Assembly: GCA_965202855.1 (NCBI GenBank)
Contig: CBDBBP010000003.1
Location: 400,941-464,940, forward strand
Source: Arenicellales bacterium
Lineage (GTDB): Bacteria > Pseudomonadota > Gammaproteobacteria > Arenicellales > JAJDZL01
DNA: 64,000 nt
Reading direction: 5' to 3'
Of the stretch, positions 29,813 to 47,666 are shown one piece after another; the first letter of the stretch is position 1; every line of letters begins with the position of its first letter. The translations under genes and the position numbers were made by a program. Under the pieces are notes generated by a model. That model was not told the DNA's origin. It did not search any database and worked only from the letters and a program-made list of their open reading frames with translations.

Positions 29813-30512
29813 GTACAAATTTAATTCGTATCGAATAGTTTAATTTCTCGTACAACAATTTGAACGAATAAATTTTTTCCTTCGTTATTTAATTTACTTA
29901 GTGAACAGTAAAATTGTATTTTCACTAAGACTTTATTTGATTTCTTCCGAGTTCACCATTGGAATAAGCCCCAAGCTTTTCCGAAAGTTTTTCTTGGGCA
30001 ATAGATCGTTAATTCGAGTGAGGTTTATTTGAGATCACACGAGGAAATTTGGTTGATCAATGTCCAAATTCTGCGCTACTATTACGGTCGAGGTTCAAAC
30101 TTATAAGCGTTGCCAATTTTCAAAGACGTTTTATTCTTTCTGCAACCCTAGTGAGTAGCTTCAATGCCTAAAAATATTGAAATTGCGCAATTTGAATTGT
30201 CAAACAATTTCGGCATTGCCTGCACAATGGAGCATAAAACTCTCGATTCTACTTTGACAAATTGGAGATGAATTAATGATGAAAGCAACACATAAAATCT
30301 GAGGAGAATCCATGATGATGCAATGGATTTCACCTAGGTGGAAATATCGCGGCAGATCCTATCGAAACGTGTCACCATTAGAGGTGCTAAATTGTGACCG
30401 CAAGTGAACTCTCAATACATTATTCGGGATCATCTTGGATGAAGATCAATTGTCTTTAGTCTAATTGAAGGAAATTCAAGTCAAATTTGGCAGATTTTCG
30501 AGGAGTTAGGCA

Positions 30513-31316
30513 ATGAAAAAAGTGGAAAATCCGCAAAATCATTTTGGCAAGACAGCGATTGTCGACATATATATTAGTTCGAAGTTTCGCGACGACATTC
30601 CGGCGCAGCTAAAATGCCTGCAACTTATTTACACTAAAGAACGCTGGTGTCAGAGGGTGTTTGAACTGTTGCTGGAAAAAGTTCGACCGGGGATGGTTGT
30701 GAAAGTGGGTTAGCCGAGCATGAACTTGTGGCGGATTTTAGTGCTGGCGGTTTTGTAACAAGGTTTAGATTGCGCCTTTGACTGTTTGCAGGAACTAGCC
30801 AACGAGCACCGGACGTAGCGTAAGATGCTGGGAAATAGCGACGGAATTGATCCCGAGCAGTAGAGTTATCAAGAGTAGCAGATGCTGTTCAACAATGTGT
30901 AGTTGCTAAGTCTGGAGTTGTTGTCCGAGATTAGTGAGGTAATGCGAAATTAGCCTGGTGAGCTAATGTGCTGGCGAATTGACAGTTATGTCATTGAGAC
31001 CGATTTTTGGCACCCAACATATGTCGGATTGATTCGTCACGCAACTTGTTGTGATATGCGAAAATTGGTTAAGAAAAGGTGCGTTTGCGAGCCGCCTTAT
31101 GCATCAACATCGCTCCGACTTGACCTGCTAGCCGCTCAGTCGCAGCGAGCAGAGATGGCTTTGTCTGCAAAACTGACCGTTCCAGAAAAATTGGAGAAAT
31201 CTGCTGCAAGTGAAAGATGTCACCGTTTAATTTTGAGACACAATTTATCACGGTCCGTCATCAAATTCACTTGGAATATTTACGACATTTTTTTGAATGT
31301 CGAAGTTTTCTGACAG
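30513..31316 (+). pseudogene. Relic of an IS5/IS1182/ISNCY-type transposase (N-terminal half only), riddled with in-frame stops
   Basis: A single reading frame gives G*PSMNLWRILVLAVL*QGLDCAFDCLQELANEHRT*RKMLG (DUF772-like N-domain) and CWRIDSYVIETDFWHPTYVGLI (compare DSTvvEtnvhyPTDsgLL). Stops lie at 30711, 30756, 30816, 30861, 30876, 30900 and 30951. No DDE core follows. Confidence 0.55.
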
Positions 31317-31627
31317 ACGCTAAATGATACGAGACTAACCAAGGCTACTTTCGAACGAGTGTCGAGCTCATGTTATGATGGTGGAATCACTTCGAGCTAA
31401 AGAGTCACACTAATCATAATCAGGTGTTCTTAGTTTATTGCAGATCTTATTCGTTCGTTTTACAAGCACCCTTTGATTGAATCAATGGGTGCTGGAACTA
31501 GCCCCTTTCAGTTATCACTAAAATTAACATCTAGACAGTTTATAGGAAATGCCTTATGAAACTAAATTCAAAAATGGAATTTATTGTGACAGCAAGATAA
31601 AATCCTGCTTAAATAAGATTACACTCC

Positions 31628-33267
31628 AGTTTCTGGGTTGAAAATTGGCTGGAGAACAAGACCTAAGTAATTGATTTAATGTATAAAGTAAGCCTCGAAT
31701 GGTATATAATGTTGTTATTGAAAAATCATCAACAAACCAAACGAGGCTATAGCATGAATCATTGTGCCAGTAAATCTGAACTGCCACAAAATATTGAACC
31801 GACGGTGCAGGATCGACAATCTTTTCGCCCAGATGTGGGCGGCATTGGGTTTGAACGGACACTTGGGGCGAGCCGGCATGAACAAGCGCAGCGGTTTGAG
31901 CGCACGCGAAACAGTGTTTCTGCTGCTGATGTGGCGTTGGCTGCGAGGCTCTTCGATCGCCATGTTCTGTCGTCACTCCCTGCAGGAATTTTTTCAAGCG
32001 CGCAAAGATGCGGTGTATGAGTTTTCCAAGCGTGAAGACATCAACTGGCGCGGTCTGAACTACCGCGCGGCTCGGGCGGTCTAACAGCGCTGCGATTTCA
32101 AGCGTTCGTCGCAGCATGCCTTTGTGATCGATGACACCATTGTCAGTCGTCGCGGCAAGAAGATGGAAGGGGTATCGGCACACTATGATCACTGCTTGGG
32201 GAAAACCGTGATCGGACAGCAGGTGGTGACCTTGGGGCTGGTGGGAGACGACGGTTTTTTACCGCTGGATTCGGAACTGTTCATCAGTTCCAAGAAAGTG
32301 CAGGGATTGAATCACAAGCACCGAGATGGGCGCAGCGTGGTGGCTCGGCGGTATCGCTGTGCCAAGTGCCAAAGCAAGCCACAAATGGTCATTGGCATGT
32401 TGAAAAAAGCGATGCGCATGGGTTTTGAGGCACCGTATTTTGTGGCCGATTCGTGATATGGAACCAAGCGCATCATTCAGTCTGCACTGGAGCTGAAGTT
32501 AACGGCGGTGTTGTGCATGAAAAGAGGAAATTAAAATATTGCGTGCTCCAAGCAGATGGCAACGAGGTGATGCTGGACGCCAAGCAGCTGTATGCCAAGG
32601 CGGTACGCAAAAAGTGGCGCAAAGTCGCAGGTCTGCCGTGGCGAGTGGTCTCTTGTACGGTACAGCTGAATCTTGAAGAGGATGAGAGCAAGCCAGAACG
32701 CTGGCAGCCGGTGAAGCTGCTGTTCGTGCGCGGCTTGGATGACGACGATAAAAACCCCAGCAACAAGAACTGGGCTCTGTTTCTTTCCACTGATCTTCAG
32801 TTGAGCACCGAACAAATGCTGCAGACCTATAGTCTGCGCTGCAGCATGGAAGTTTATTTCAAAGAAACCAAGCAGTGCTTGGGGTTTTGGTTCGAACAGA
32901 CTCGCAGTTTCGCCTCGTTCATCGCCTCCATCCATCTGTGTGCGACCCGTCATCTGCTGCTCAGCTATGCGGCTTTAAGCGAGCACGGACACAATGTCCC
33001 TGAAGTGCGCGAACAGATCAAAGAACAACTCGATACGATCTGTTTTGCACGCCGCCTGTGGAACTACTTCCGTAGCTTGGTGTACCGTTCCATCCGCGCC
33101 AGCAAAACCCTGACCGAGCGCAGCCTTGACTTCGTGATGCAAGCCATTGACCGAGAAGTCGAACAATTCTTGGAGAGATCACTTCAATTGGATGTCCTCA
33201 GCCTCCAAATGGAGGATGATCCAGCTGTTTTGTCAGGCTAAATTAGATGACTTTGAATCCAGAAACT
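31628..33267 (+). mobile_element. IS4/IS701-type insertion sequence, about 1.64 kb, inactivated
   Basis: Imperfect terminal inverted repeats agtttctgggttgaaaa (31628-31644) and ctttgaatccagaaact (33251-33267) match at 15 of 17 positions. They enclose one broken transposase gene. The element is visibly more G+C-rich than its flanks. Confidence 0.6.
31764..33241 (+). pseudogene. IS4/IS701-type DDE transposase, disrupted
   Basis: Motifs FVIDDTIVSRRGKKMEGVSAHYD and YFVADS*YGTKR. Three lesions are visible: an in-frame TAA at 32082-32084, a TGG-to-TGA change at 32454-32456, and a frameshift in the A-run near 32520-32530. The C-terminal part is 32453..33241. Confidence 0.65.
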
Positions 33268-33715
33268 TTTCTTAAAATGTAAGTACGCTATAGTTAAAAT
33301 GTTAAGACAACAATTAAGTCTGAGTATTATTTAAAACAGTATTAATTTTGGGGGAATGCAGTCGTGTCCACTGTAATGAGAAAGTCTCTAAAGATTTAAT
33401 ATTAATTGAATCTTCCTGTGGACGTAAATCAAAGCATGAAGGAATCAGAGAACGCCCCCGGGGGCGCGAAGGCTTTGTAATAGCATTTTATTTGGAAAAC
33501 AACGGTACGTGCATAAATAGGACCCAATTTTCAATGAAGTGATTGCTAGAGACGGACGTGGGCATTGCAGGGCATCATTCTGTTGGATTGAGGTCAAGCA
33601 GGAAACTGAATGACGAATATTCTCATATTCAATTGCACGACGATTCTCTGGTGACGGAATGATTCGGACTGTATTTTGAACCCCGAAACTCGAGGATTAC
33701 ATTAAAGGTTTTACT

Positions 33716-36115
33716 ATGCTATCGAGTTCCTCAAAGAACGAAAAAATGCTCTGGTCTGAGCTTGAACCACTCGTTGATTCGTTGCATGTCTTAGGTATCG
33801 ATCTAGGTACTACTAATTCCGTAATCGCAGAAATTGTGATGCAGCCTGGTGAAAAGTCACCATCGGTTAGATGTCTTGAAGTGAAACAAGATACTCTTCA
33901 AGGCCCAGATTTTAGTAGTCTTGTGCCGTCTGTTGTAGTAGACAGTGGAAGCGAAACGATTGTCGGAGAAGGTGCGAAGGAACGACGAGCTCGTTTAAAT
34001 GAGTTCAAGTTAGAACGAGAAAAAGACATTTTTTGGAATTGTAAAAACTACATGGGTGTTCGCCGGACTTACCACAGAGCGCAAGACGGCTTTAGGTCAG
34101 CTAAAGAAATTAGCGGGCAAATTCTTAAGTTTCTCGTAGACGCGGTACCGATGGACAAGCAAACAATTTTGACGCGAACAGTTATAAGTGTACCAGCATC
34201 TTACCAGAGCGCACAACGTAACGACACTGTTCAAGCGGCGGAATTAGCTGAGATAGACCTAAGAGATGATGGATTAATAGATGAGCCAATCGCAGCTTTT
34301 CTGTCGTTCCTATACCTTAATCGTGGCGAAATATTCACTGATCTCGAACAATCAAAGCGGCTCGTTGTTTTTGATTTCGGTGGTGGTACTTGCGACGTAG
34401 CGATATTTGAACTCTTTCCACAAAGTAGGAAACTAAATTTAAATGTTGCGCCACTCGTAGTTTCACGATATCACAGGCTTGGAGGAGGCGATATAGACCG
34501 AGCAATTGTAGTTGACGTGTTGCTACCTCAGCTCTACAAACAAAATAATGTGAGTGACGGCGAATTTGACTTTGGTGTGAAGTCCAAGTTCATTATTCCT
34601 GCGCTGCTTGGTGTCGCAGAAGAATTGAAGATTGGTATTTGTCGGGAAATTAATCGTCTTAAGAATTTAGGTCAATATGAATCAAAACGCAGTGATCTTA
34701 TAAAGAAAATTCCTGGCTTTTTTAAAGTTGATTTGAGAAGTAAGAAGAACCTGAAACTTACAGAACCTACATTAAGTGCGAGCGAATTTGAACGTGTTTT
34801 GGAGCCATTTCTAGAAAGCGAGTTACTTTATTATCGTGAAATGTCTGAGTACTACACGATATGCTCGATATTTGCACCTCTTGAAGACGCTTTAGAACGT
34901 GCAAATTTGCATGCTCGTAATATTGATTTGTGTCTATTAGTGGGAGGAAGCAGTCTAATACCACAGGTTTTTGAAGCTGTCGAAAAACATTTTTTTGCTG
35001 CAGAAATTTTGCGATTCGATAAATTAGAAGAAATTCAGACAAGTGTTGCACAGGGTGCGGCGTTGCAAGCGTTGTCTCAGATTTTAAATGGAAAAAGCGT
35101 AATTTCTCCAATTACAAATGACGGTATTCGTATCCAGACGGAAAGTGGACCAATAGAATTGATCCCCAAAGGCGAAGAATTGCCATATTATTCAAACGAA
35201 AATTGGGCGGTGAATGAAGATTTAGAAGTTCCAAACACCGGAAAGAATGTTGAATTGAACATTGAGATCAACAACTCTCACGACGAAATTTTAATGCAAT
35301 ATTTGTGGCGGATTGAACGGAGAGTCACTAAGGGCGATGCCCTTCGATTGTATTTTCGAATGGATAGCAATCAGGTTTTACACTTGAAACTTGAATTGGT
35401 GGATGACCCTACTTTTCAAATTGCGCGTTCGATAGAGAATCCATTAACGAATGTTGTGAATCCCAACAAAACTCGGAATAAAATTCTTGAATTGGAAGAG
35501 CAAATACGAACACAATCTATGACATCGGCGCAGATACGATTGAAAGTTCTTGAAGTTGCCAAACTGGAAGCCAAACTAAGCCACTTCGAAAAGGCTTTAC
35601 ATTTGTTGCGAGAGCTAAACAAACGGAAACCAGAGTCTCATATACTACATCGCATGGGTTTAATTTGTGGAGAAATGAGGGACTTCGAACGTGAAGAAAA
35701 ATTTTATCTTGAAGCTGCCCGAATATCGTCAAATGGAAGTGCGTCGCTGTTTAATCTCGCTTTGTCAAAAAAATCGCAGGGAAAATTCGAGGAAGCCATA
35801 GATATTATTGATGAAGCTATAAAGATTGAACAAGACCCGGCTTATTTGATTTTGAAAGCTCTATTGTCTGATCACTTGAATCTTTCTTCAGATAAACGCA
35901 ATAGATTGCTTCAAACTGCATTAGAGACTAGTGAACCTTTGCATCTAATGTCGGATTTTGATATCTATTGGTATGAACGTGGTAGCCAGTTGGCAGGAAA
36001 CAGCGAAAGAATAAATGAAGTGGAAGATGAAAAAAGGCGGAGAAAAAGAGCTTCAATTCCTAAGAGTGGAGGAGAATTACCCAAGAAAAGGAGTGAAAAC
36101 TCGAAGAACTCATGA
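33716..36115 (+). CDS. Non-canonical Hsp70 (DnaK-fold ATPase plus SBD-beta-like domain) with C-terminal TPR-like repeats and a basic tail
   Basis: 799 aa. Full actin-fold motif set: GIDLGTTNS (33794-33820), DEPIAAF, VVFDFGGGTCDVAI, LGGGDID, LLVGGSSLIPQV and AQGAALQA. A beta-sandwich-like segment (ISPITNDGIRIQTESGPIELIPKGEELPY ... LRLYFRMDSNQVLHLKL) follows, then about 200 aa of helical TPR-like repeats and the tail EDEKRRRKRASIPKSGGELPKKRSENSKNS. Confidence 0.85.
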   Translation: MLSSSSKNEKMLWSELEPLVDSLHVLGIDLGTTNSVIAEIVMQPGEKSPSVRCLEVKQDTLQGPDFSSLVPSVVVDSGSETIVGEGAKERRARLNEFKLEREKDIFWNCKNYMGVRRTYHRAQDGFRSAKEISGQILKFLVDAVPMDKQTILTRTVISVPASYQSAQRNDTVQAAELAEIDLRDDGLIDEPIAAFLSFLYLNRGEIFTDLEQSKRLVVFDFGGGTCDVAIFELFPQSRKLNLNVAPLVVSRYHRLGGGDIDRAIVVDVLLPQLYKQNNVSDGEFDFGVKSKFIIPALLGVAEELKIGICREINRLKNLGQYESKRSDLIKKIPGFFKVDLRSKKNLKLTEPTLSASEFERVLEPFLESELLYYREMSEYYTICSIFAPLEDALERANLHARNIDLCLLVGGSSLIPQVFEAVEKHFFAAEILRFDKLEEIQTSVAQGAALQALSQILNGKSVISPITNDGIRIQTESGPIELIPKGEELPYYSNENWAVNEDLEVPNTGKNVELNIEINNSHDEILMQYLWRIERRVTKGDALRLYFRMDSNQVLHLKLELVDDPTFQIARSIENPLTNVVNPNKTRNKILELEEQIRTQSMTSAQIRLKVLEVAKLEAKLSHFEKALHLLRELNKRKPESHILHRMGLICGEMRDFEREEKFYLEAARISSNGSASLFNLALSKKSQGKFEEAIDIIDEAIKIEQDPAYLILKALLSDHLNLSSDKRNRLLQTALETSEPLHLMSDFDIYWYERGSQLAGNSERINEVEDEKRRRKRASIPKSGGELPKKRSENSKNS

Positions 36116-37347
36116 GCTGGCTCTTATCTCGAACTGAACTGACAAATCCGCAAGATTCTGCCGTTGAATTATCACACGATGTACATCGGATAATTCTCGG
36201 CTCACCAGGTTCCGGTAAGACTTTGGTTTTGCTACATAGAGCAAAACACCTTGTAGATAAACTTGGTGTTTTACCTAAGCGCTTTCGAATATTCGTATTT
36301 ACCAGAGTTCTGAAGGAATACATTTCCCCAGCTCTTAGTGAACTCGAACTTCCAAGCAATTGCGTACTTACTTTTGATAGTTGGTGTCTGAAATTTCACA
36401 GAGAAAATATTGGTCGTCCACCGTGGGAAAGAAAACGAAAGGGGTTCGATTTCGGGAAAATTCGTGAAGGAGTATGGGAATATTTGCGATCAACTGAATT
36501 TCCAAAAATGTATGATTTCGTCATGGTTGATGAAGGACAGGATTTTGATCCTATTGTTTACAGAATTCTCGATGCAATTGCCATTCATGTGACGATTTTT
36601 ATGGATTCCAAACAACAAATTTATGAGAATGGACTTGATAAGCACGGTATCCAAATGGTTCTGTCATCGCTGACTCCAGAACGTACTTTGCTCCCTGCTT
36701 TTCGCTGTTCTCCATACATTGTGCGAGTTTCAGTGGAGTTTATCTTGGAGAAAAATGATCGGGATGCCTTCGTAGAACAAAATCGACAAAACCAAAGTAA
36801 AGAGGGGAAGGTTCCAAATCTTTACCTTGCACGTGACAGAGATGAAGAAAAAGAGCAACTATTGGAGGTTGTTCGAAATAGAAGCATTAAGAATGATCGT
36901 GTTGCTATTCTCGTACCGACTGTACGACTTGCTTATAGTTTGGGGTGGTTTTTAACTGAGAAAGGTATTGAGATAGAAATTCCGGGACGACCAGGTTCAA
37001 ATCGAAAAAAATCTCTACCCACAATTGATTTTGCATCACCGTCCCCAAAGATTATGCCTTACCCGAGTGCCAAAGGACTTACGTTTGACTCGGTATTGAT
37101 GCCGTTGCTGAGCAAAAAAAAGTTTTCTCGTCATATGAATTTAGATCTTATGACCAGGTGGTTGTTTGTCGGTATTACACGTGCGACAGAATGGGTTTAT
37201 TTTAGTTCAGTTTCTGATGACTGCGTATTCCTTAGGCAATTTCAAAAGCTGGAATCCAACCAGCAGCTTTGGATACAGACAGGACCGGTTACACTTCCTG
37301 AATGGGATAACTCAGAGGGTGATGATGACCTTATAGATATTTTTTAG
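36112..37347 (+). CDS. Minimal UvrD/Rep-like SF1 helicase-family ATPase with an acidic C-terminal tail
   Basis: 411 aa. Walker A GSPGSGKT (36199-36222), motif II VMVDEGQDFD, AKGLTFDSVLMP and motif VI VGITRA, ending EGDDDLIDIF. Its ATG overlaps the Hsp70 stop (ATGA at 36112-36115). Confidence 0.8.
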   Translation: MSWLLSRTELTNPQDSAVELSHDVHRIILGSPGSGKTLVLLHRAKHLVDKLGVLPKRFRIFVFTRVLKEYISPALSELELPSNCVLTFDSWCLKFHRENIGRPPWERKRKGFDFGKIREGVWEYLRSTEFPKMYDFVMVDEGQDFDPIVYRILDAIAIHVTIFMDSKQQIYENGLDKHGIQMVLSSLTPERTLLPAFRCSPYIVRVSVEFILEKNDRDAFVEQNRQNQSKEGKVPNLYLARDRDEEKEQLLEVVRNRSIKNDRVAILVPTVRLAYSLGWFLTEKGIEIEIPGRPGSNRKKSLPTIDFASPSPKIMPYPSAKGLTFDSVLMPLLSKKKFSRHMNLDLMTRWLFVGITRATEWVYFSSVSDDCVFLRQFQKLESNQQLWIQTGPVTLPEWDNSEGDDDLIDIF

Positions 37348-38058: not shown

Positions 38059-39231
38059 TTATCTTCCTCGAATAGTTGACGAAGTGCTTGTAGTGGGTCG
38101 CACGAGCGGAACAGCAGTTATGATCAAAATAATGGAAGTTGCAATCAACGATGGTGTGAAGCTCGAAGTCGCGAGATGCAGCGCGCTCGCAAAGAAGGGC
38201 CCGATCAATTGTCCAACGGCGAATGCTGCTGTCATTACTCCGACATGGCGGGCGGCGTCAGTGGGTGTTGCGACGCGGTGTGCCTCATTTAGCCCCGCCA
38301 TTGTGATGACCATGAAAGTGCCTCCAACGCACAACCCCGCAGCGATGATCGAGAGGATGTGGGCATAAAGAACCGGCAGAATCAAACCAGTGGCCATCAC
38401 AAATTGACCGACACACCAGATTTGACGGTTGGAGAAACGACGATGGAGCCAGGCCGAAGCCAAGGTTGAAAGGAAGGCAGCGGTACCGAAAATAGGCCAC
38501 CCCCAGCCAAAAATCCATGGCGACGGCACAATTTCACGAGCCATCGCAGGCAGATACGTTCCAGGAATAATGTAACCTAGCCCAACCGCACCATATGCGA
38601 CAACGATACTCCACACGATAGGAGTTCGGCCTTCGGCACTCTCACTCTGAGAAGTATGCACAGCGGGAAGCGCCGCCCTCGAATTTTTCCAGATTAAACC
38701 TGAGATAAGAAGTGCCAATATGCCAATGAATTGCCAGCTGGCTGCGCTGGATACACCGCTGACCATCATGGAGAAACAGGCCAGTCCAGCAAGAGCGATC
38801 CCGGCACCGACACCTGAGAACACCCATCCCTTGTAGTCGGGCTGGCCAGCTTCCGCCAACGCCTTAATACAAAAGGTTCCTACCAAGACCAACACCCAGG
38901 CGCTAACAACTCCGGCGAGCCAGCGGAGCATCAGCCAGATCTCGAATTGTTCGGAAAACCCCATCGCCAGTGTGGCAAACCCAATTGCGACCAATGATGC
39001 TGGTAACAGCATGCGGGGTGACACTGGGACCCAAGCAGCCGTCAATGCTCCGATCAGGTAACCAATGAAATGGACCGTAGCGAGGAAGCCACCGTCCGAA
39101 ATCGTGATCAAACCATCGGCCTGCATCATGGGAAGAAGCGGTGTAAACGCAAACCGACCAATTCCTACGCCAACTGCTAGTCCGGCGAGACCGATGAAAG
39201 CAATTCGAAGCGTCGAGTCTTTTTTTGGCAT
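38059..39231 (-). CDS. MFS transporter, YbfB/YjiJ family
   Basis: 390 aa, about 12 TM segments, N-terminal GIGRFAFTPLLPMMQADG signature. The gene is conspicuously G+C-rich: a hand-counted 60-nt line is about 65% G+C, against roughly one third in the neighbouring Hsp70 gene. Confidence 0.8.
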   Translation of the reverse strand: MPKKDSTLRIAFIGLAGLAVGVGIGRFAFTPLLPMMQADGLITISDGGFLATVHFIGYLIGALTAAWVPVSPRMLLPASLVAIGFATLAMGFSEQFEIWLMLRWLAGVVSAWVLVLVGTFCIKALAEAGQPDYKGWVFSGVGAGIALAGLACFSMMVSGVSSAASWQFIGILALLISGLIWKNSRAALPAVHTSQSESAEGRTPIVWSIVVAYGAVGLGYIIPGTYLPAMAREIVPSPWIFGWGWPIFGTAAFLSTLASAWLHRRFSNRQIWCVGQFVMATGLILPVLYAHILSIIAAGLCVGGTFMVITMAGLNEAHRVATPTDAARHVGVMTAAFAVGQLIGPFFASALHLATSSFTPSLIATSIILIITAVPLVRPTTSTSSTIRGR

Positions 39232-39465: not shown

Positions 39466-41673
39466 TCAATCACAAAGCCTTGTTCGAATCCAATTTCTTG
39501 TTGCATGTGAGTCGAATGCTTTGCGGCCGTAACCTTCATTTAGCAGAGACTCTGGAATAAATTTGTCGTATTTATCAGTGCACTTGTTTTTCAACTCAAG
39601 AGCTAGCTCAGTCTCATTGGGTAATTTTCCATTTGCTAAATCTATTAGATATTTCGCTACTTCGTCTCGAACAGCACCTTGAATTTCAACGACACCGCCA
39701 TTTGAGCTGGCATTGAATCCCTGTTGTTTCAATATGACGGTCAATGTGTTAACAATCTTGTCACCCATCCAAGTAAATAAATGACAATTATTCCCGACTT
39801 GTACAATTGACTGACGGGCCAAGTCAGACTGCTTAAAAAACTCAGCGCCTTCCTTGAAAAACTGCCGCGCCTGTTCATCTGCAAAATCTATCTTTCGAGA
39901 ATTTACTTCAATCCGATAGTCTCCTGCGGAATAAATTCTAAGCATCTCCTTCCGAACAACATCATGGACAGACATTCCGCTGCCATAAAATTTAGGCGGC
40001 TTGCCTCCTTTCGCTGAAACCACATGGACAACTCTTTTGATTTCGTCAATTTCTGTTACCTTCCAACGTTTGCCACTAAATACAATATGCTGATCCTTGT
40101 GAATGAAATTTTGTGCTGGCAACAGCCCTAAAGTCTTATTTTCAGTGACAATCCTATAGTCTAAAGGCGTATTGAATACAGAATAAAACGCATAGTGGCT
40201 GACAACGCGTTCTCCTTGAATTCCAAGTACCAGTTCGCCACTTCTAAACTGCTGTAACAATTGCTCTTTTCCCATCTGAGTTAGAAGCTGCTGGTACTGC
40301 TGAACGGAAATTTCTCTGAATGGACCTTGGTCACAGAGCAGAATATAAAGCTGGTCAATTCTAATGCTTCCCCATTGTGCGACTACTGCGAGTATCTGGT
40401 GAAGAAACGTTGAAAGATGCATTTGCCTTACATCTGGCGGTTCAAACCACTTGCGTACTATCATTAACCGAATCATTGCTAACGACTGAACCAGTTCAAG
40501 CCTAAGATGGTCGTTAATGTTTGACGTCTCATCCATTTGTCTCTCCGCGATAAGCATTTGAAGAACTGCCGGCGAGTTACGTCGACCAGACCGTCCTAGT
40601 CGCTGGCGCAAACTGGATACCGAGTGTGGCGCTGTTACCTGGATGACAGAATTCACTTTACCAATATCAATTCCAAGTTCTAACGTCATGGTACAGACTG
40701 CCGTCGTCGGAATGTTTTGTTGTTGTAGTCGAGCTTCTAGTTCTTCCCGTAAATTTTTCGCTAGGGAGCCGTGATGAGGAAAAAATTCGTTAGGTACGGA
40801 ATCTTGTTCACAAAAATCCGCTAAATTTACCGCTATATTCTCTGTCCGCTGACGTGTATTTGCGAACACAAGATGCGAATCTCCACGGCATCGTTGATAA
40901 ATCTCTTGGCAAATCTGATGCTCAGCAGGGGTAGGGGCTTGAGAATCATATTCCATGGTAGGAGCCGGTTCGATAAATCCCTTTATTTGAATTTTTATCA
41001 CGCTTCGAAATTTACTGCTCGTGATCGTTTTACAGGGTAGGCTTACGTTGGGTCTGAGATAAAGTGGAACTTTATCCAATTCTCCAAGCGTTGCACTTAA
41101 GGCTATTCTAGGTATGGGATCTTTGAGCCGATTTAACAGATGCTCTAACCTATTCAAAAGAGAAAGCAGTTGCTGCCCTCGCTCAGTCCCGATAAACGCG
41201 TGAAACTCGTCAACACAAACATATTTCAATTGAGAAAACGACTGTTTTACCCATCCTGCTTCGCGGACAAGAAGGGACTCCAGAGACTCTGGCGTAATTA
41301 GCAGAATCCCTTGGGGATTCCTTTTGAAATGCTTTTTCTTCGATTGCGAGACGTCACCGTGCCACGGGGTTACATGCATGTCAAGCATGTCGCATAATTC
41401 TCTCAGCCTCCGATACTGGTCGTTGATCAACGCTTTTAGGGGGCTTATATAGAGGATGCTGGCTGCTTGTTCCTGACCGACAACGGCACTGCATGCAGGA
41501 AGAAAAAATGCTTCTGTTTTGCCCTCTCCGGTGGATGCGCTGATTACTAAGTCACGGTCGCAAGATAATATTGGAAGGATTGCTTTTGACTGGATTTGAC
41601 GTAAATTGCTCCAGCCCTGTTTGTATACCCATTTCTGGATTTTTCGATCTAACTTCGCAAACGCATCCGTCAT
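39466..41673 (-). CDS. sngC: Shango SngC-like DEAD/DEAH-box helicase (Lhr/BrxHI-like)
   Basis: 735 aa. Q-motif/motif I ISASTGEGKTEAF, motif II VCVDEFHAF, motif VI QRLGRSGRR, and a long C-terminal extension. Its start overlaps the upstream ATPase stop (ATGA at 41670-41673). Confidence 0.75.
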   Translation of the reverse strand: MTDAFAKLDRKIQKWVYKQGWSNLRQIQSKAILPILSCDRDLVISASTGEGKTEAFFLPACSAVVGQEQAASILYISPLKALINDQYRRLRELCDMLDMHVTPWHGDVSQSKKKHFKRNPQGILLITPESLESLLVREAGWVKQSFSQLKYVCVDEFHAFIGTERGQQLLSLLNRLEHLLNRLKDPIPRIALSATLGELDKVPLYLRPNVSLPCKTITSSKFRSVIKIQIKGFIEPAPTMEYDSQAPTPAEHQICQEIYQRCRGDSHLVFANTRQRTENIAVNLADFCEQDSVPNEFFPHHGSLAKNLREELEARLQQQNIPTTAVCTMTLELGIDIGKVNSVIQVTAPHSVSSLRQRLGRSGRRNSPAVLQMLIAERQMDETSNINDHLRLELVQSLAMIRLMIVRKWFEPPDVRQMHLSTFLHQILAVVAQWGSIRIDQLYILLCDQGPFREISVQQYQQLLTQMGKEQLLQQFRSGELVLGIQGERVVSHYAFYSVFNTPLDYRIVTENKTLGLLPAQNFIHKDQHIVFSGKRWKVTEIDEIKRVVHVVSAKGGKPPKFYGSGMSVHDVVRKEMLRIYSAGDYRIEVNSRKIDFADEQARQFFKEGAEFFKQSDLARQSIVQVGNNCHLFTWMGDKIVNTLTVILKQQGFNASSNGGVVEIQGAVRDEVAKYLIDLANGKLPNETELALELKNKCTDKYDKFIPESLLNEGYGRKAFDSHATRNWIRTRLCD

Positions 41674-42992
41674 ATCCTGAAGCTGGCTAAATCGTCATAG
41701 TTGGAATTCCCATTATTATTATTGGCAGGGATTTCGGCAGTGTCACTTGGATTTTCCTTCTCAACTGAAATTCCATCGATTAGATCGGTCCAATGCATAT
41801 CAGGGTATTGTTCGAGTACCGCCAGAAAATCGAGAAAAGCTTTTATCGTATTCCTCGGTGTCCTGAAATACGCATCACCTATTTTTTTGCCACAATGTTC
41901 TAAAAATGCCTTTAATACATCATCTTGAACAAGATATTTGGACGCATCGCCTCCCGCGAATACATGACGTAAATTTTTCAATAGGATGAACATTTCTGCA
42001 GGAGTCAAGCTGGCTAGATGCAATGTGGGGGATGAATAATCTATTACTTTAGCTTTTCGTGCGAATGTGTTTTCCGCCAGGCGGGACTCTAAGGCCTCAT
42101 AACTAAATAAACCTTTCCTAGGATCTATCAGAAACTCTGGAGTGCCTCCCAACACAAAGCCAATATGCTCCGCAGGTCCTTGAAGACAATCATTCAGAAT
42201 TCGCAGTATTTGCTCGTAATTTGAAGTTCGTGCTTGGGTATGGCGTAATTTATAGAGATTGACCATTTCATCCAAGTTAATCAGCAACCCTTTGTACCCG
42301 GCCTGACGTACAAACAGACTCATTAGTTTTAAAGCGTCGTAGAATAAACCGTCAGAAATAATGGTTCTTACTCCAAGGTCTTTTCTCGCCTCAGTTTTAG
42401 TAGTGTATTCAGCACGCAGCCAACGAATGGAATTTGATTTTAATTCCTCGTCGCCAGTTTCATATCCTAGCCAGTAGGAATTGACTACATGCGCGAAATC
42501 ATAACCGCTTACCATTTCTCGTAGAGAAGCTAATTTTTTATGAATAAGACTCGAAACCTGTGCCTGATTCTGATCGGCCTCATCACGTGCAAGGGTGATG
42601 AAACGCTCCACTACACTAGGCAGCGCATTACCATCGGGTTTACTGAGCGTGGATAGGTTTCGCATCAATTCGGCGTATAAATTGCGAGCTTGCCCCGACG
42701 TGGAATGAATTCGTCGGACCGGAGACAGATCGGCATTCACCGTAACAAGTTTCTTCTTCAGTGCAATTGAGCGGATGACGCTCATAAAGAAAGTCTTGCC
42801 TGATCCGTAGTCACCAATGATCAACCTGAAAGAGGCACCGCCGTCGATGATTCTTTCAATATCCTTGTAGAGTGCTTTGATTTCATTGACTCGGCCAACT
42901 TGAACATGCTGAATACCGATATTTGGCGTAACCCCTGCCTTCAATGACTGAATTATTGCTTCTTTCTCTCTTAATCGAATATTCCGTGCCAT
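41670..42992 (-). CDS. sngB: Shango SngB-like ATPase (DUF2791 / BrxD-like)
   Basis: 440 aa. N-terminal IIQSLKAGVTPNIGIQHVQVGR, Walker A GDYGSGKTFF and Walker B-like LLINLDEM. Only 5 nt separate it from the upstream gene. Confidence 0.75.
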   Translation of the reverse strand: MARNIRLREKEAIIQSLKAGVTPNIGIQHVQVGRVNEIKALYKDIERIIDGGASFRLIIGDYGSGKTFFMSVIRSIALKKKLVTVNADLSPVRRIHSTSGQARNLYAELMRNLSTLSKPDGNALPSVVERFITLARDEADQNQAQVSSLIHKKLASLREMVSGYDFAHVVNSYWLGYETGDEELKSNSIRWLRAEYTTKTEARKDLGVRTIISDGLFYDALKLMSLFVRQAGYKGLLINLDEMVNLYKLRHTQARTSNYEQILRILNDCLQGPAEHIGFVLGGTPEFLIDPRKGLFSYEALESRLAENTFARKAKVIDYSSPTLHLASLTPAEMFILLKNLRHVFAGGDASKYLVQDDVLKAFLEHCGKKIGDAYFRTPRNTIKAFLDFLAVLEQYPDMHWTDLIDGISVEKENPSDTAEIPANNNNGNSNYDDLASFRI

Positions 42993-42997
42993 TGCGT

Positions 42998-45319
42998 CTA
43001 GACTTCTAATTCTTCAACAATCTCTTGATCGATATATATCGCATCGGCCGCTTCTTCAATCACAGGTGCTTCAACTCTCTCAAACGACCATTCGTTAATA
43101 AATTCTATAGCTGCATTGCTCATTAGACCCAATTGATTACATAATGAATTAAATTCATCACGGGACCACTTGGATTCAGCAGCTAGCATTTTATATAGGG
43201 AGTAATGCTGCTCATCAAAACCATTGACTGTCTGGTCGCTTTCAGATTTTTCTGGTGCATCAGTTTCATCGAATCGTTCTTCGTCTGTGAATATGTCATC
43301 TAGAAATGATTGAACTTCTTTGGTCTGTAATTCGTGGGCAGCGATTGAATTATTGTCAAATTCGACATCTCCGGCGGAGCTGTTTTCCCCGGTGATTCGG
43401 CTGTGAATATCAAGGCTGACCCGCGATTTATCGAGACCTAGCAAGGGGTACAGTTTTTCTAATTCTCTGATCTTATTGGGGTCATGCCTAGAGTCTGCTA
43501 AAGCGACATCAATTAGAATTTCGCCAACAGCTGTTTTTTCGACAGCGTTCATTGTGTCTAGACTCGCTTTCAGCCCGATTCGATTGGCCGGAGTGTTTAG
43601 ACGCCAGACAAGATAGGATTGCAGTGACTGTTTTTCTACGGATGACAGATTCGAATTATCTTGAATAAGCTGACTTAACATTGCCAATTCCGGTTGATCT
43701 GCATGAGAATTAATGGTCGCGACCATTGCCCCGAGCCGCAAGGCAATTCCCATATTATTGAATGTTTTGGAAGGCTTGAATTTCTTCCCGTGTCCTCCGC
43801 GAAATAACACTAGCTTCCCATTTAAGCTTGGCTTCGCATAGTGATACCTTGTGTCTGGGACAACTCCAAATCCAGTTTTATCTGCAAGTTCTTGAATAAG
43901 TTCATACTCTTTTTTGTTGATCTTGTCCGGAAGAGGGGTATTTGTGAATTTCCAGTAGGCACTTACGTCAACTAAACCACTGTTTTTTGAAGCGCATTTT
44001 TCGGCCCAGTTTCTAAATTTGTCTAGACCGCGGGAGTCTGCTAGATCACTTAGTTCTTCAGGAAGCAACAAAAGTGCGGAAATATCAGTTGGAGAATTAT
44101 GTTGTCTTCCCAAGTGGCGACTGTACGCATCTAGCGCATTGTTGCATTGATCCGCAACAACGATCAATTTTTTAAGTGAATCCCGAAAGGTGTATGGGTG
44201 CGGAAGGTCTTCCAGAGGAATTTTAATTGCCCGCAAAGAAGGACTCGCAGGCTCGTATTGGATTTTCAATTGGATGTACTTTCGATTTATATCGGGCTCT
44301 AAAACAATTCCCTCTTTAAACTTCTTCCTATAAGAGCGGTAAAACAGCTGCTTAAATTCATCTGCACAGCGCAGAGCAGGTGTTTTAAATTTGTAGCCAG
44401 AATAGAGATTGAGCCATACCCATGCCAAATCTGAGGGAATCGGTTTCCCATCACTAATTGTTTTTGCAAGCTTGTATTTGACTAAATGTGAGTTCCGATC
44501 GAAATTTTTTTCCAAATTTTGGTGTGAGACTACGTTTGGACGTAGGATGCACATTATTTGCAGCAACTGATCTGAATGATTGCTGAATGAATGTGACTTC
44601 AGCAACTGATTTGAATCATTTTTGAATGAGTGCGGTTCGCCATATATCTGATTCAGTCGCAGCACCTCTTGAAAGATGCTCCTGAATTCTTTATTGCTTA
44701 GTTCACGCTCATAGAAATCTTCAACAAGCCGTCTTTCTAATCCGTAGAAATAAAGAAAAACATATCCAAGCCGCGTTTTGGGGTCATCTCGATTGCTCGC
44801 CAGCCAATTTAGGTAGGCGCCACGGCAATCTGCTGATATGGAATTGTATTTAATCTCATAACGGAGGCTGTCATCTTCGTAGCTGACTGGCCGATTCACG
44901 GTATTCAGCGAGTCGTCAATCAAAGCCGCGTCCGTCGAAAAATTTTTCAGAGCGGGCAGCCTAACGCCAAAATAAAAGTTTCCTTTTGTTATTTCATAGC
45001 CTCTTATGTTGATTCTCTCGTGCGATTTCAACCAAGCAGCTAGTGGTTCAGTCTCGCCAGCGAAGTCTTCAAATTCATCGTCATAAAATGTCGCGAATTC
45101 GTCATCGTCGTATTCGCCATAATTTGGAGCCACTTGGTAAGTTGAAGCAGACGGATTTTCACTATTAGGATTCGTCCTGCCAAAATTTTTGTGCTGTTCG
45201 TCTGAATTCAACTTTGAAGATTTAGTTTTCCGTACAAAAAAAATGACGTGCTTGATAATGACAAACAGCAAGACAAAAGGAAAAGTCAGCGAGTATAAAA
45301 CATAAATTAGAATTTTCAT
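42998..45319 (-). CDS. sngA: Shango SngA-like membrane-anchored TerB-N / TerB-C domain protein
   Basis: 773 aa. N-terminal TM helix (ILIYVLYSLTFPFVLLFVII). TerB-N-like core (INIRGYEITKGNFYFG ... AYLNWLASNRDDP ... YVFLYFYGLERR). TerB-C-like end (EQHYSLYKMLAAESKWSRDEFNSLCNQLGLMSNAAIEFINEW). Confidence 0.7.
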   Translation of the reverse strand: MKILIYVLYSLTFPFVLLFVIIKHVIFFVRKTKSSKLNSDEQHKNFGRTNPNSENPSASTYQVAPNYGEYDDDEFATFYDDEFEDFAGETEPLAAWLKSHERINIRGYEITKGNFYFGVRLPALKNFSTDAALIDDSLNTVNRPVSYEDDSLRYEIKYNSISADCRGAYLNWLASNRDDPKTRLGYVFLYFYGLERRLVEDFYERELSNKEFRSIFQEVLRLNQIYGEPHSFKNDSNQLLKSHSFSNHSDQLLQIMCILRPNVVSHQNLEKNFDRNSHLVKYKLAKTISDGKPIPSDLAWVWLNLYSGYKFKTPALRCADEFKQLFYRSYRKKFKEGIVLEPDINRKYIQLKIQYEPASPSLRAIKIPLEDLPHPYTFRDSLKKLIVVADQCNNALDAYSRHLGRQHNSPTDISALLLLPEELSDLADSRGLDKFRNWAEKCASKNSGLVDVSAYWKFTNTPLPDKINKKEYELIQELADKTGFGVVPDTRYHYAKPSLNGKLVLFRGGHGKKFKPSKTFNNMGIALRLGAMVATINSHADQPELAMLSQLIQDNSNLSSVEKQSLQSYLVWRLNTPANRIGLKASLDTMNAVEKTAVGEILIDVALADSRHDPNKIRELEKLYPLLGLDKSRVSLDIHSRITGENSSAGDVEFDNNSIAAHELQTKEVQSFLDDIFTDEERFDETDAPEKSESDQTVNGFDEQHYSLYKMLAAESKWSRDEFNSLCNQLGLMSNAAIEFINEWSFERVEAPVIEEAADAIYIDQEIVEELEV
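44561..44638. repeat. Two tandem 39-bp in-frame units inside sngA
   Basis: cagcaactgatctgaatgattgctgaatgaatgtga (from 44561) and cagcaactgatttgaatcatttttgaatgagtgcgg (from 44600). They encode HSFSNHSDQLLQI / HSFKNDSNQLLKS. Confidence 0.7.
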
Positions 45320-46553: not shown

Positions 46554-47666
46554 TTATCCAATGATGCCGTTAGAACTTGAACGAATGCGCTCGAACAGTT
46601 CCTCGGCAGTTTCGCAATGAATGATCAAGTCTCCTATCCGGTCAAGGGCTTCGGTTGTCGTTTGTCGCAGCAAGGTCTCGGACAACTGTTCGCGCACCTC
46701 AGGCCCATATTTCGACTCGACCAGCCGCAGCAACAAATCGCGTTTGCCTTTTTCCAAGCCCTGAACCTGACCTTCCTCAATGCCCTGAACCCGGCCTTCC
46801 TCAATGCCCTGAACCCGGCCTTCCTCAATGCCCTGAACCCGACCTTCCTCAATGCCCTGAACCCGACCTTCCTCAATGCCCTGAACTCGACCTTGAGCCT
46901 GGTAATCAGCGGCCCATTTCTTCATATTCTCTGCCAGCATACCCATATCTTCTACTCCTTCTATTCGATCACGCAGCTGATCAGCGACCGCCGCTTTCAG
47001 CCACTTCGCCAAATCCGCTTTCAGTTCTCTGTCTCCCGGCTTCTGATACCATTCGGTAAATTCTCTAAAGACTTGGAACCACTCTGCGTCGGAATCTGTG
47101 CACTCCAAACGTATCAACATGCCTAGCGGATGGTCTGAATGCAGCAGTGCGAGTTCCCTGTACGCTGAAAGTTCCATCAGAATGAATCGGCATTGACCAA
47201 TGTATTGGGTCTTTACTGAGCCAATGACCGAGAACAGTTCCTTCAGCTCCAGCGGTGCCTTCCACCGTCCAGAACCATTATAAATGACGATGGGGATGAC
47301 CGACGGCAACCTCCCATCGGTGGCCAGCCGTTTCTGCCGAACCAGCTGTTCCAGCAGCAAAGAACAGTAGGTGTTCATGCGCAAAGGCATGAATCTGTCC
47401 ACCTTCGACTGAAACTCCACGGCCAGGTACAAGGCAATGCCAGCCTCGGTGCCGTACGCCTTCCAGACCAGGTCCTGCCGGCGCTGCTGCTTGCTTTTGC
47501 TCACCTGTTCGGTGGCCATCAGCTGCAGGTCGTCCATGTTGACGTCATCCAGCTGCGGTGACAGAAACCGCACCACTGCGCGGATCATTTTGGGGTGGGA
47601 GAAAACGCGTTTCAGCGCGGAATCATAATCAAAGTTGGCGGCAGGCACGAAACCTCCTTGAGTCAA
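46554..47666 (-). CDS. Rpn family recombination-promoting nuclease / putative transposase (YhgA-like PD-(D/E)xK)
   Basis: 370 aa. N-terminal DYDSALKRVFSHPKMIRAVVRFL, core RRQDLVWKAY...LYLAVEFQSKVDRFMPLRMNTY, and a C-terminal helical domain containing GRVQGIEE x5. Confidence 0.8.
   Translation of the reverse strand: MTQGGFVPAANFDYDSALKRVFSHPKMIRAVVRFLSPQLDDVNMDDLQLMATEQVSKSKQQRRQDLVWKAYGTEAGIALYLAVEFQSKVDRFMPLRMNTYCSLLLEQLVRQKRLATDGRLPSVIPIVIYNGSGRWKAPLELKELFSVIGSVKTQYIGQCRFILMELSAYRELALLHSDHPLGMLIRLECTDSDAEWFQVFREFTEWYQKPGDRELKADLAKWLKAAVADQLRDRIEGVEDMGMLAENMKKWAADYQAQGRVQGIEEGRVQGIEEGRVQGIEEGRVQGIEEGRVQGIEEGQVQGLEKGKRDLLLRLVESKYGPEVREQLSETLLRQTTTEALDRIGDLIIHCETAEELFERIRSSSNGIIG
46758..46901. 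repeat. 24-bp in-frame tandem repeat, 5 units plus 1 degenerate
   Basis: Units start at 46758, 46782, 46806, 46830 and 46854, with a degenerate unit at 46878. The unit matches the one at 46147..46242. Confidence 0.9.

Follow-up and report, generated by a model that had tools for sequence, protein, structure and literature searches.

What does an Hsp70-type ATPase do when it is encoded together with a helicase, a short distance from a complete defence system? The question was raised by a 64,000-nucleotide (nt) stretch of DNA from an Arenicellales bacterium (GenBank assembly GCA_965202855.1, contig CBDBBP010000003.1, positions 400,941 to 464,940 of the forward strand; hereafter the window), in which gene 1, encoding an Hsp70 with tetratricopeptide (TPR)-like repeats, is followed directly by gene 2, encoding a UvrD-like helicase of superfamily 1 (SF1). 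We found that the two are almost certainly a functional two-gene unit and that this unit probably serves as an immune or conflict module; its architecture could not be filed under any known system, and the pair, as judged from sequence, is a strong candidate for an anti-phage module of a new kind, built on a chaperone. The open reading frames (ORFs), the sequence and the translations bore out the coordinates, the ATGA overlap and all the motifs quoted in the original prediction, which had been drawn from the letters of this stretch. The pair is laid out as follows.

33716..36115, plus strand: gene 1, ATG start, a non-canonical Hsp70 of 799 amino acids (aa) with a TPR solenoid instead of the helical lid (ORF, Pfam, AlphaFold2, Foldseek)
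36112..37347, plus strand: gene 2, ATG start, a minimal UvrD-like SF1A ATPase/translocase of 411 aa, no nuclease or accessory domains (Pfam, AlphaFold2, Foldseek)
36112..36115, plus strand: ATGA start/stop overlap, translational coupling (sequence; −4 nt in 32/58 callable homologous pairs)

Conservation of the gene pair

The association between the two genes was assessed in two sets of loci, namely in one-genome-per-species GTDB contigs (185,579 genomes), in which 352 genomes were gene 1-positive and 80 loci were examined, and, in the reverse direction, in 80 metagenome loci found with an alignment of gene 2. A gene 2 homologue was located directly downstream and on the same strand in 73 of the 76 GTDB loci with room downstream, and an Hsp70-TPR gene was located directly upstream in every metagenome locus with room upstream (72/72); the predicted co-conservation was thus observed in both directions and across >15 phyla. 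The spacing of −4 nt was the commonest, and nearly all other pairs were ≤20 nt apart. In the window the overlap lies within tcATGAgc (36110-36116), where the two genes share 4 nt through the ATG of gene 2 and the TGA of gene 1; translational coupling of this kind would keep the output of gene 2 at a fixed ratio to that of gene 1. Pairwise distances between gene 1 sequences correlated with those between gene 2 sequences (r = 0.68, Mantel P ~ 0.001, 113 pairs). No conserved third gene was detected in neighbour clusters or in Pfam and PADLOC comparisons across the homologous loci.

The exceptions to the pairing look like decay, not like alternative architectures. The Hsp70-TPR gene stands alone in one locus (L074), gene 2 has been lost inside a Schlafen/Type III restriction-modification (R-M) island in another (L081), and gene 2 is truncated in L006, L014, L015 and L029. 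In L056 (9782-14698), the Hsp70-TPR gene is split between its substrate-binding domain (SBD) and its TPR by an insertion sequence (IS) with an rve-family integrase (348 aa), and the TPR remnant persists as a 184-aa ORF overlapping the intact helicase gene.

Gene 1 encodes an Hsp70 with TPR-like repeats in place of the lid

The domains of gene 1 were delimited as follows.

33782..35089, plus strand: Hsp70 nucleotide-binding domain (NBD), residues 23-458, catalytic motifs intact (invariant residues in 117 homologues; AlphaFold2)
35102..35437, plus strand: SBD-beta-like beta-sandwich, residues 463-574 (all-beta in AlphaFold2; aligns with DnaK SBD-beta in Foldseek)
35468..36052, plus strand: TPR-like solenoid of 11 helices, residues 585-779 (Pfam TPR_8/TPR_1/TPR_12; AlphaFold2 helices)
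36053..36112, plus strand: basic C-terminal extension with invariant L788-P789 (RRxRR-type stretch followed by LP in alignments; AlphaFold2)

The translation of gene 1 carries the motifs GIDLGTTNS, DEPIAAF, VVFDFGGGTCDVAI, LGGGDID and LLVGGSSLIPQV, and Pfam assigned it to HSP70 (E = 1.1e-26) as well as to TPR_8, TPR_1 and TPR_12. Among the 117 homologues, D29, K110, E190, D220-G224, T225, D227, G256-G257, D259, D261 and G410-G411 were invariant, as were the ATP-binding and hydrolysis motifs (the FDFGGGTxD loop, GGGDID and VGG) and, within the TPR, F679, N680, L681 and W752. AlphaFold2 modelled the protein from the same 117-sequence alignment with a predicted local distance difference test score (pLDDT) of 90.4 and a predicted TM-score (pTM) of 0.85, and a hydrophobic interdomain linker precedes the beta-sandwich. 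In Foldseek searches gene 1 matched full DnaK and BiP chains, with DnaK alignments that reached the SBD-beta spanning ~590 to 700 columns, and the tightest superposition was on 7kru_A (DnaK NBD plus SBD-beta; target-normalised TM-score [TMt] 0.72; root mean square deviation 4.7 Å), which represents DnaK in the docked, substrate-bound "stimulating" state. As modelled, gene 1 is an Hsp70 that has retained its ATPase motifs, linker and substrate-binding beta-sandwich and has exchanged its lid for TPR; the predicted domain plan of an intact-motif Hsp70 with an SBD-beta and TPR instead of the lid was thus recovered by Pfam, by AlphaFold2 and by the invariance across homologues.

The family is uniform in this respect. 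More than 1800 homologues of gene 1 were found, the top 120 of which were all ~800 aa long and 43 to 54% identical over their full length, and when residues 460-799 alone were used as the query, 298 clusters were recovered (E ≤ 1e-10; 1.84 billion representatives searched), with full-length matches uniformly of ~800 aa. Unusually long gene 1 N termini in L005 and L008 contain no domain and are probably artefacts of calling ORFs from the first start.

The basic C-terminal extension of gene 1 (basic tail, EKRRRKRASIPKSGGELPKKRSENSKNS) includes a short modelled strand (residues 787-791, around L788-P789; pLDDT ~79). Because of this strand, because Leu-Pro is invariant and because gene 1 superposes best on DnaK with bound substrate, the tail could possibly act as a cis pseudo-substrate of the protein's own SBD.

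One variant of gene 1 carries an additional domain. In L244:659-5223 (Logan SRR23238833) a Ser/Thr kinase is fused N-terminally to the Hsp70-TPR, giving a protein of 1103 aa; the UvrD-like gene keeps its 4-nt overlap, and a gene for a vWA-domain protein lies just upstream. The fusion is real, and it suggests phosphorylation-based input or output in some lineages.

Gene 2 encodes a minimal UvrD-like motor

Three features of gene 2 could be placed on the sequence.

36199..36222, plus strand: Walker A/motif I, GSPGSGKT, with K36 (G30, P32, G33, G35 and K36 invariant in 118 homologues)
36529..36543, plus strand: motif II (Walker B), DEGQD (D140, E141, Q143 and D144 invariant in 118 homologues)
37297..37344, plus strand: disordered acidic linker and conserved C-terminal peptide, EGDDDLIDIF-COOH (pLDDT <50 for residues 396-411; tail alignment)

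Pfam matches of gene 2 were to UvrD-helicase (E = 4.3e-15), UvrD_C, AAA_19 and UvrD_C_2, and its translation also carries VGITRA. The AlphaFold2 model (pLDDT 90.5, 118-sequence alignment) consisted of two RecA-like core domains and a disordered tail (residues 396-411). SF1 motifs I to VI were invariant or nearly so among the 118 homologues (Q14, GxPGxGK36T, D140-E-G-Q-D144, D165/Q168, R198, K321-G-x-T-x-D326 and R357), and with conserved motifs Q, I, Ia, II, III, IV, V and VI on two RecA-like domains gene 2 belongs to the UvrD/Rep/PcrA SF1A superfamily. Its best Foldseek matches were PcrA, UvrD and Rep (E = 1e-17 to 1e-13), with Upf1 at ~1e-12 and below. With 411 aa, compared with ~650 to 720 aa for PcrA, UvrD and Rep, it reached a TMt of 0.42 to 0.48 against their resolved chains of ~630 aa; full 1B and 2B accessory domains were not found in the model, which has short inserts instead. 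The gene 2 family is uniform in length (~410 to 440 aa), and PDB sequence searches with both proteins returned nothing closer than DnaK/BiP and PcrA/UvrD. As modelled, gene 2 is a bare UvrD-type motor with a complete set of helicase motifs and without a 2B, nuclease or targeting domain, which agrees with the stripped-down SF1 ATPase lacking a recognisable nuclease that had been predicted.

The gene 2 tail covaries with the TPR

The C terminus of gene 2 is conserved: in the 118 homologues the last residue was F or L in 112, position −3 was D in 102, and position −5 was L in 81. The linker before this peptide is acidic and of variable length (the net charge of the final 25 residues had a median of −5), and in a wider set the tail took the general form D-[DE]-L-x-x-[LFIW]-[LFI]-COOH. 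Two relatives with NERD and UvrD domains that occur in the same loci and have no Hsp70 partner lack the tail. For the analysis of covariation, tails were assigned by hand to the classes …SDLF, …xDLF, …LDFL and …xxLL, and Hsp70 columns were ranked by their mutual information with tail class. The TPR, which makes up 26% of all columns, held 20 of the 40 top covarying columns; control traits, for which 84 columns of comparable entropy were taken from the core of gene 2 and which share their phylogeny with the tail trait, gave 10.0 ± 2.8 TPR columns (maximum, 17). In the …LDFL class R/K646 was replaced by L and L617 by D, and the shifts at the strongest covarying TPR positions appear contact-like; K662, R659, N680 and W752 were fixed across all tail classes. 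Since the tail is conserved and covaries preferentially with TPR columns, we consider it somewhat likely that the TPR is its binding partner. The prediction that the TPR docks the acidic tail thereby gained indirect support, from tail conservation, from covariation and from the tailless unpaired relatives, and docking as such would follow by inference.

A comparable arrangement exists in eukaryotes, in which the C-terminal EEVD peptide of Hsp70 and Hsp90 is held by TPR-clamp co-chaperones (Hop, CHIP and PP5). In both cases a short acidic C-terminal peptide on a flexible linker and a TPR domain occur within an Hsp70 machine, but here the roles are swapped, with the TPR inside the Hsp70 itself and the peptide on the partner helicase; moreover, the motif differs (D-[DE]-L-x-x-[LF]-[LF]), and its binding is predicted from sequence. 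Alternatively, the tail might mimic that of SSB, the C-terminal tip of which, DDDIPF, recruits many genome-maintenance proteins and is resembled by the gene 2 terminus EGDDDLIDIF.

A candidate chaperone-gated defence module

For the function of the pair, we lean towards a self-contained, horizontally mobile two-gene module of defence type, in which the Hsp70 and the helicase form a complex and the Hsp70 gates the motor. The more specific assignment of the Hsp70 as sensor and the helicase as effector is tentative, and the fullest version, in which an Hsp70 primed by its own Leu-Pro tail senses phage proteins and passes an ATP-driven switch through a TPR clamp to a tethered helicase that would in turn attack or stall the DNA of the invader, is more doubtful still.

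In such a mechanism the helicase tail would dock in the TPR groove, following EEVD-TPR logic in reverse, to give a stable Hsp70-helicase complex, and the basic-flanked Leu-Pro tail of the Hsp70 would sit in the SBD as a cis pseudo-substrate. An infection cue, most plausibly a phage protein or peptide, would bind the SBD and displace this pseudo-substrate; the Hsp70 ATPase cycle would gate the motor, and the switch of state would release or activate the helicase. The target of the motor would then be the nucleic acid of the invader: it could strip replication intermediates or translocate along them, or it could deplete nucleoside triphosphates, or it might displace replication proteins or hand over to neighbouring restriction enzymes, beside which, and probably together with which, it would work in about one-third of genomes.

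Several points weigh against this reading. The case for defence comes from genomic context only. Effector chemistry is its weakest link because no toxic or nuclease domain can be recognised in either protein, which leaves the killing or blocking step unexplained. Many homologous loci lie amid housekeeping genes (for example, those for methylmalonyl-CoA mutase, IGPS and Pta), and the counts of immune neighbours given below are raw, without a formal enrichment against genomic background. The covariation analysis involved ~100 sequences, hand-made tail classes, and a phylogeny common to trait and columns. Finally, phage, plasmid and Escherichia coli-centred resources do not contain the module, which hence has not passed through any published screen.

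Neighbourhoods of homologous loci and the link to restriction-modification

Genes of R-M type were found ≤6 kb from the pair in 25/80 loci (15/41 among loci of ≥15 kb), including L004, L010, L014, L020, L029 and L031, and 33 of the 35 such neighbours were co-oriented with the pair (binomial P = 3.7e-8). They comprised HKD-SNF2 proteins of ~1050 aa, Type ISP_C or Type IIG methyltransferases (MTases) of 1120 to 1570 aa, and Type III MTases. The gene order HKD-SNF2, MTase-ISP_C, small ORF, pair was shared by L010, L014, L020 and L029, and the order HKD-SNF2, pair, MTase-ISP_C was seen in L001/L004. Since about a third of loci carry co-oriented R-M genes, the pair may not always act alone.

These data could also be read to mean that the pair is not autonomous and is an accessory to R-M, serving the large Type IIG/ISP-like enzymes that combine an MTase with a target recognition domain (TRD) and the HKD-SNF2 nuclease-helicases; it might remodel or recycle stalled translocating restriction complexes, process the DNA that they produce or protect them from anti-restriction proteins. 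The proximity, the strong co-orientation and the recurrent gene orders speak for such a role. However, most loci, the window included, lack such a neighbour, and tblastn with all 35 R-M-type neighbours revealed no R-M partner or remnant in the window. The partners, moreover, fall into a number of unrelated classes (IIG, ISP-like, Type III and HKD-SNF2), and other loci have type III CRISPR or Schlafen instead. This mixture of R-M, CRISPR and Schlafen partners is better explained by co-residence in islands or by optional cooperation than by obligate dependence, and we regard the accessory role as unlikely.

Other immune genes were also met beside the pair. One homologous pair is embedded in a type III CRISPR-Cas locus that also carries Csm6/CARF genes, another homologue lies beside Schlafen/AlbA_2 and Type III R-M genes, and further neighbours identified with PADLOC were HmaC, a Type IV restriction endonuclease, DpdF, PDC-S02, Cas6, PsyrT and NERD+UvrD. 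The defence-island setting claimed for the window therefore extends beyond it, to R-M, type III CRISPR, Schlafen and Dpd neighbours. Chaperone partners were scarce: with an E. coli DnaJ J-domain query, tblastn detected no J-domain sequence in the window and a single match in the 1.9 Mb made up of the window and 160 loci, at a distance of 8 kb from the pair concerned, and DnaJ and GrpE families were not among the 25 commonest Pfam families of neighbours, no direct search for GrpE having been made. The claim that no dnaJ/hscB-type gene lies nearby thus holds for the window as far as J-domains are concerned.

Some neighbouring genes deserve separate mention. In some loci HKD-SNF2 and MTase-TRD genes flank the pair, as if a Type ISP enzyme had been split and the pair placed between its parts. 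Small ORFs of 160 to 271 aa lie between the MTase and Hsp70-TPR genes in L010:9086-9898, L014:9238-9915, L029:9398-9877 and L031:9378-9935; they had no Pfam or PADLOC match, those of L010 and L014 are mutually homologous, and they may be an extra component of the R-M-linked sub-architecture. In two loci that are unrelated to each other (L035:8873-10711 and L083:13638-15473) the pair is directly followed by a NERD+UvrD gene (~612 aa, PADLOC C3a187). Within PADLOC nothing is closer to gene 2 than C3a187, and the two kinds of module may therefore share ancestry or cooperate.

Distribution of the family

Relatives of gene 1 were present in 352 of the 185,579 GTDB species genomes (~0.2%), in >15 phyla. 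Hosts included Acidobacteriota, Gammaproteobacteria, Desulfobacterota, Bacillota, the PVC group, Planctomycetota, Nitrospirota, Chloroflexota, Armatimonadota, Dependentiae and others, and nearly all were metagenome-assembled genomes. The nearest relatives of the window copy, ~50 to 54% identical, came from varied lineages, Acidobacteriota, Candidatus Contendobacter and Binatia among them. From this patchy spread the pair appears to be a rare module that has been widely transferred between lineages. Carriage on plasmids or phages was rejected, as no family member was found among PLSDB plasmids (generic Hsp70s only, 25 to 31% identity) or INPHARED phages, and IMG/VR contained one small family fragment. 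Two IMG/VR contigs (L085:8001-9989 and L086:980-2968) encode Hsp70-like proteins with 27% identity to gene 1 over residues 26-686, that is, past the NBD, and these may represent a remote relative that is carried by phages and has an architecture extended in a similar way.

The distribution bears on whether the pair has a housekeeping or stress function outside immunity, as a chaperone-controlled nucleic acid motor for genome or transcription maintenance acting, for example, in HelD-like recycling of RNA polymerase, in replication-fork clearance or in the removal of protein-DNA roadblocks. A precedent exists in the freeing of DnaB helicase from lambda P by DnaK, DnaJ and GrpE. Such a function would suit the lack of an effector or toxin domain in either protein, the fair share of metabolic neighbours and the weak similarity of gene 2 to HelD (NCBIfam HelD_BACSU, 1.4e-08; HelD chains among its PDB and structural matches). 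It is difficult to reconcile with a family scattered this thinly over phyla, with closest relatives of the window copy in other phyla, with frequent pseudogenised and IS-disrupted copies and with repeated adjacency to several kinds of immune system; in the window, in addition, the G+C content of the pair is below that of its flanks and IS debris is adjacent. We therefore consider a housekeeping function improbable.

Comparison with known systems

Known systems were compared by means of PADLOC-DB v2, Pfam, NCBIfam and Foldseek. Gene 1 had no match in PADLOC-DB v2, and gene 2 matched generic UvrD-type models only, so the pair, as predicted, corresponds to no named system. The best PADLOC match of gene 2 was C3a187 (NERD + UvrD; 1.6e-22), which it covers over profile positions 201-555 of 559, the helicase part. 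Such genes adjoin the pair in L035 and L083, but gene 2 has no NERD domain in Pfam, and the NERD+UvrD proteins have neither the tail nor an Hsp70 partner; membership of this group was ruled out.

Gabija consists of GajA, an OLD-family ATPase/TOPRIM nuclease, and GajB, a UvrD-like helicase. It resembles the pair as a two-gene defence-island module with a UvrD-like SF1 protein that has no nuclease of its own, but here the partner is an Hsp70-TPR and not an OLD/TOPRIM nuclease, the pair is without any nuclease, and gene 2 has ~410 aa versus ~500 to 650 aa for GajB models. Matches of gene 2 to these models were partial and weak (best, 7.5e-16, residues 130-293), and the GajB structure 8iud ranked 42 among its structural matches (query-normalised TM-score [TMq], 0.34). 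With gene 1 an Hsp70 and no OLD/TOPRIM gene among the annotated neighbours in the window, Gabija was excluded.

The housekeeping Hsp70s (DnaK, HscA, HscC and YegD) share with gene 1 the NBD fold and its catalytic residues, and gene 1 has kept the SBD-beta as have DnaK, HscA and HscC; it differs from them in the TPR that replaces the lid, in the lack of a J-domain or GrpE neighbour and in its patchy distribution, like that of a mobile gene. Its NCBIfam scores for DnaK (103.5 bits; cut-off, 648), HscA (92; cut-off, 708) and PRK11678 (YegD type; 35; cut-off, 331) fell far short, with housekeeping-Hsp70 scores overall of 35 to 104 bits against cut-offs of 331 to 1019, and gene 1 is for this reason not an orthologue of any of them. 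A DnaK/HscA/YegD-type chaperone was accordingly ruled out, in agreement with the proposal that the protein is not of the housekeeping HscC/YegD type.

Shango (SngABC) comprises the TerB-domain protein SngA, the BrxD-like ATPase SngB and the DEAD/DEAH helicase SngC. In the window it lies on the opposite strand and beyond a transporter gene, and the pair matches no Sng model; in the homologous loci, SngA, SngB and SngC models were not among the 25 commonest PADLOC families (80 neighbour proteins), and none recurred in neighbour clusters. The pair is a unit separate from Shango, not an extension of it. The GTPase-tubulin-Hsp70 conflict systems (Kaur et al., Aravind type; PMC7159879) were rejected, as their partners differ and neither a GTPase nor a tubulin accompanies the present pair. 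A precedent for an Hsp70 chaperone network as a layer of infection sensing is bNACHT25, for which phage sensing is reportedly mediated by host DnaJ (PMC12169576); in that case a NACHT/STAND ATPase borrows a host co-chaperone, whereas the present module encodes its own Hsp70. No description of the pair was found in the literature covered, to which most subscription-journal papers did not belong, so that a report may have been missed, and in DefensePredictor there was no mention of Hsp70, DnaK or UvrD.

The closest described architecture is that of the Type III CoCoNuTs, which are predicted only and comprise CnuD (Hsp70-like with HEAT-like repeats), CnuH (an SF1 helicase), CnuB/McrB and CnuC/McrC; CoCoNuTs as such are defined by homologues of the McrB-type GTPase (NxD) and of McrC (DUF2357) (PMC11090510). 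Theirs is the sole described prokaryotic immune context that encodes an Hsp70-like NBD/SBD and helical repeats with an SF1 helicase. CnuH, however, is UPF1-like with coiled-coil/OB inserts (PMC11090510), whereas gene 2 is UvrD-like, minimal (411 aa) and without insertion; CnuD, compared by description, has a similar succession of NBD, SBD and helical repeats, but its ATPase motifs are degenerate (PMC11090510), whereas the phosphate-binding motifs of gene 1 are invariant. McrB and McrC were absent from the annotated neighbours in the window and from the 25 commonest neighbour families of the 80 loci, and neither the window nor the set of recurrent neighbours showed a HEPN partner. With no McrB/McrC among these neighbours and a UvrD/PcrA/Rep-like helicase, the pair was ruled out as a CoCoNuT.

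By the logic of the Type III CoCoNuTs, the pair could nevertheless serve RNA-directed surveillance, with RNA or ribosomes instead of unfolded protein as the ligand of the Hsp70-like protein and RNA as the substrate of the SF1 motor. Besides the union of CnuD with CnuH (PMC11090510), this idea draws on the homologous pair within the type III CRISPR-Cas locus and on Upf1/IGHMBP2 among the structural matches of gene 2. Yet the RNA binding of CnuD is argued by its authors (PMC11090510) from the degenerate motifs that gene 1 does not share, the best matches of gene 2 are UvrD, PcrA and Rep ahead of Upf1, and McrB, McrC and HEPN partners are lacking from the window and from the recurrent neighbours; RNA surveillance is thus very improbable. 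That unrelated genes were simply joined by IS activity in this genome, as the IS remnants immediately upstream of the pair might suggest, is refuted by the same gene order, mostly with the same 4-nt overlap, in 73/76 and 72/72 independent loci, and its likelihood is negligible.

Implications of a dedicated immune Hsp70

The sensors known from bacterial immunity belong for the most part to the STAND/NLR ATPases, nucleases, cyclases or ABC/OLD ATPases. If the pair is indeed immune, chaperone-type peptide recognition by a dedicated Hsp70 would be a new principle of infection sensing and the module would rank as the first anti-phage system centred on an Hsp70. For the evolution of Hsp70 co-chaperone networks the reversed EEVD/TPR logic is of interest, and the module would constitute a prokaryotic counterpart, and possibly a forerunner, of eukaryotic Hsp70-EEVD/TPR wiring that operates without any J-protein. 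A J-protein-independent Hsp70 regulating a minimal SF1 motor would likewise offer a compact model for Hsp70 allostery and helicase control. An immune Hsp70 would also tie in with the phage sensing through host DnaJ that has been reported for a bacterial NLR-related protein (PMC12169576). The family has been overlooked, occurring as it does almost wholly in uncultured lineages and outside PADLOC and plasmid, phage and E. coli-centred screens, and its frequent co-orientation with large restriction enzymes raises the question of cooperation between immune modules.

Surroundings of the pair in the window

The G+C content fell from ~0.48 to ~0.40 on entry to the pair (~0.40 for the pair versus ~0.45 to 0.49 for its flanks). 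Scans for promoters and terminators at the pair gave results no better than shuffled sequences. Directly upstream lies IS debris (30500-33300), and ~2 kb from the pair, on the opposite strand, lies a complete Shango system, separated from it by a transporter gene. The context that the original prediction had described, with IS remnants, Shango at ~2 kb and an Rpn-like gene at ~9 kb, was correct by PADLOC and Pfam. The neighbouring features are the following.

32124-32456: DDE_5 transposase fragment (Pfam)
38059-39231: MFS (YbfB-type) transporter gene, separating the pair from Shango
39466-45319, minus strand: complete Shango SngABC (PADLOC; E = 1e-262, 2e-177 and 8e-73)
39466-41673, minus strand: SngC (PADLOC)
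41670-42992, minus strand: SngB (PADLOC)
42998-45319, minus strand: SngA, TerB_N/TerB_C (PADLOC)
46554-47666, minus strand: YhgA/Rpn-like gene (Pfam Transposase_31; E = 1e-16)

The YhgA/Rpn-like gene had no PADLOC match at E ≤ 1e-5, and its local G+C content was 0.53. A 262-aa ORF that follows the DDE_5 fragment (32453-33241) had no Pfam match. Throughout the stretch of IS debris, numerous short ORFs overlap on both strands, and on its upstream side lie metabolic genes.

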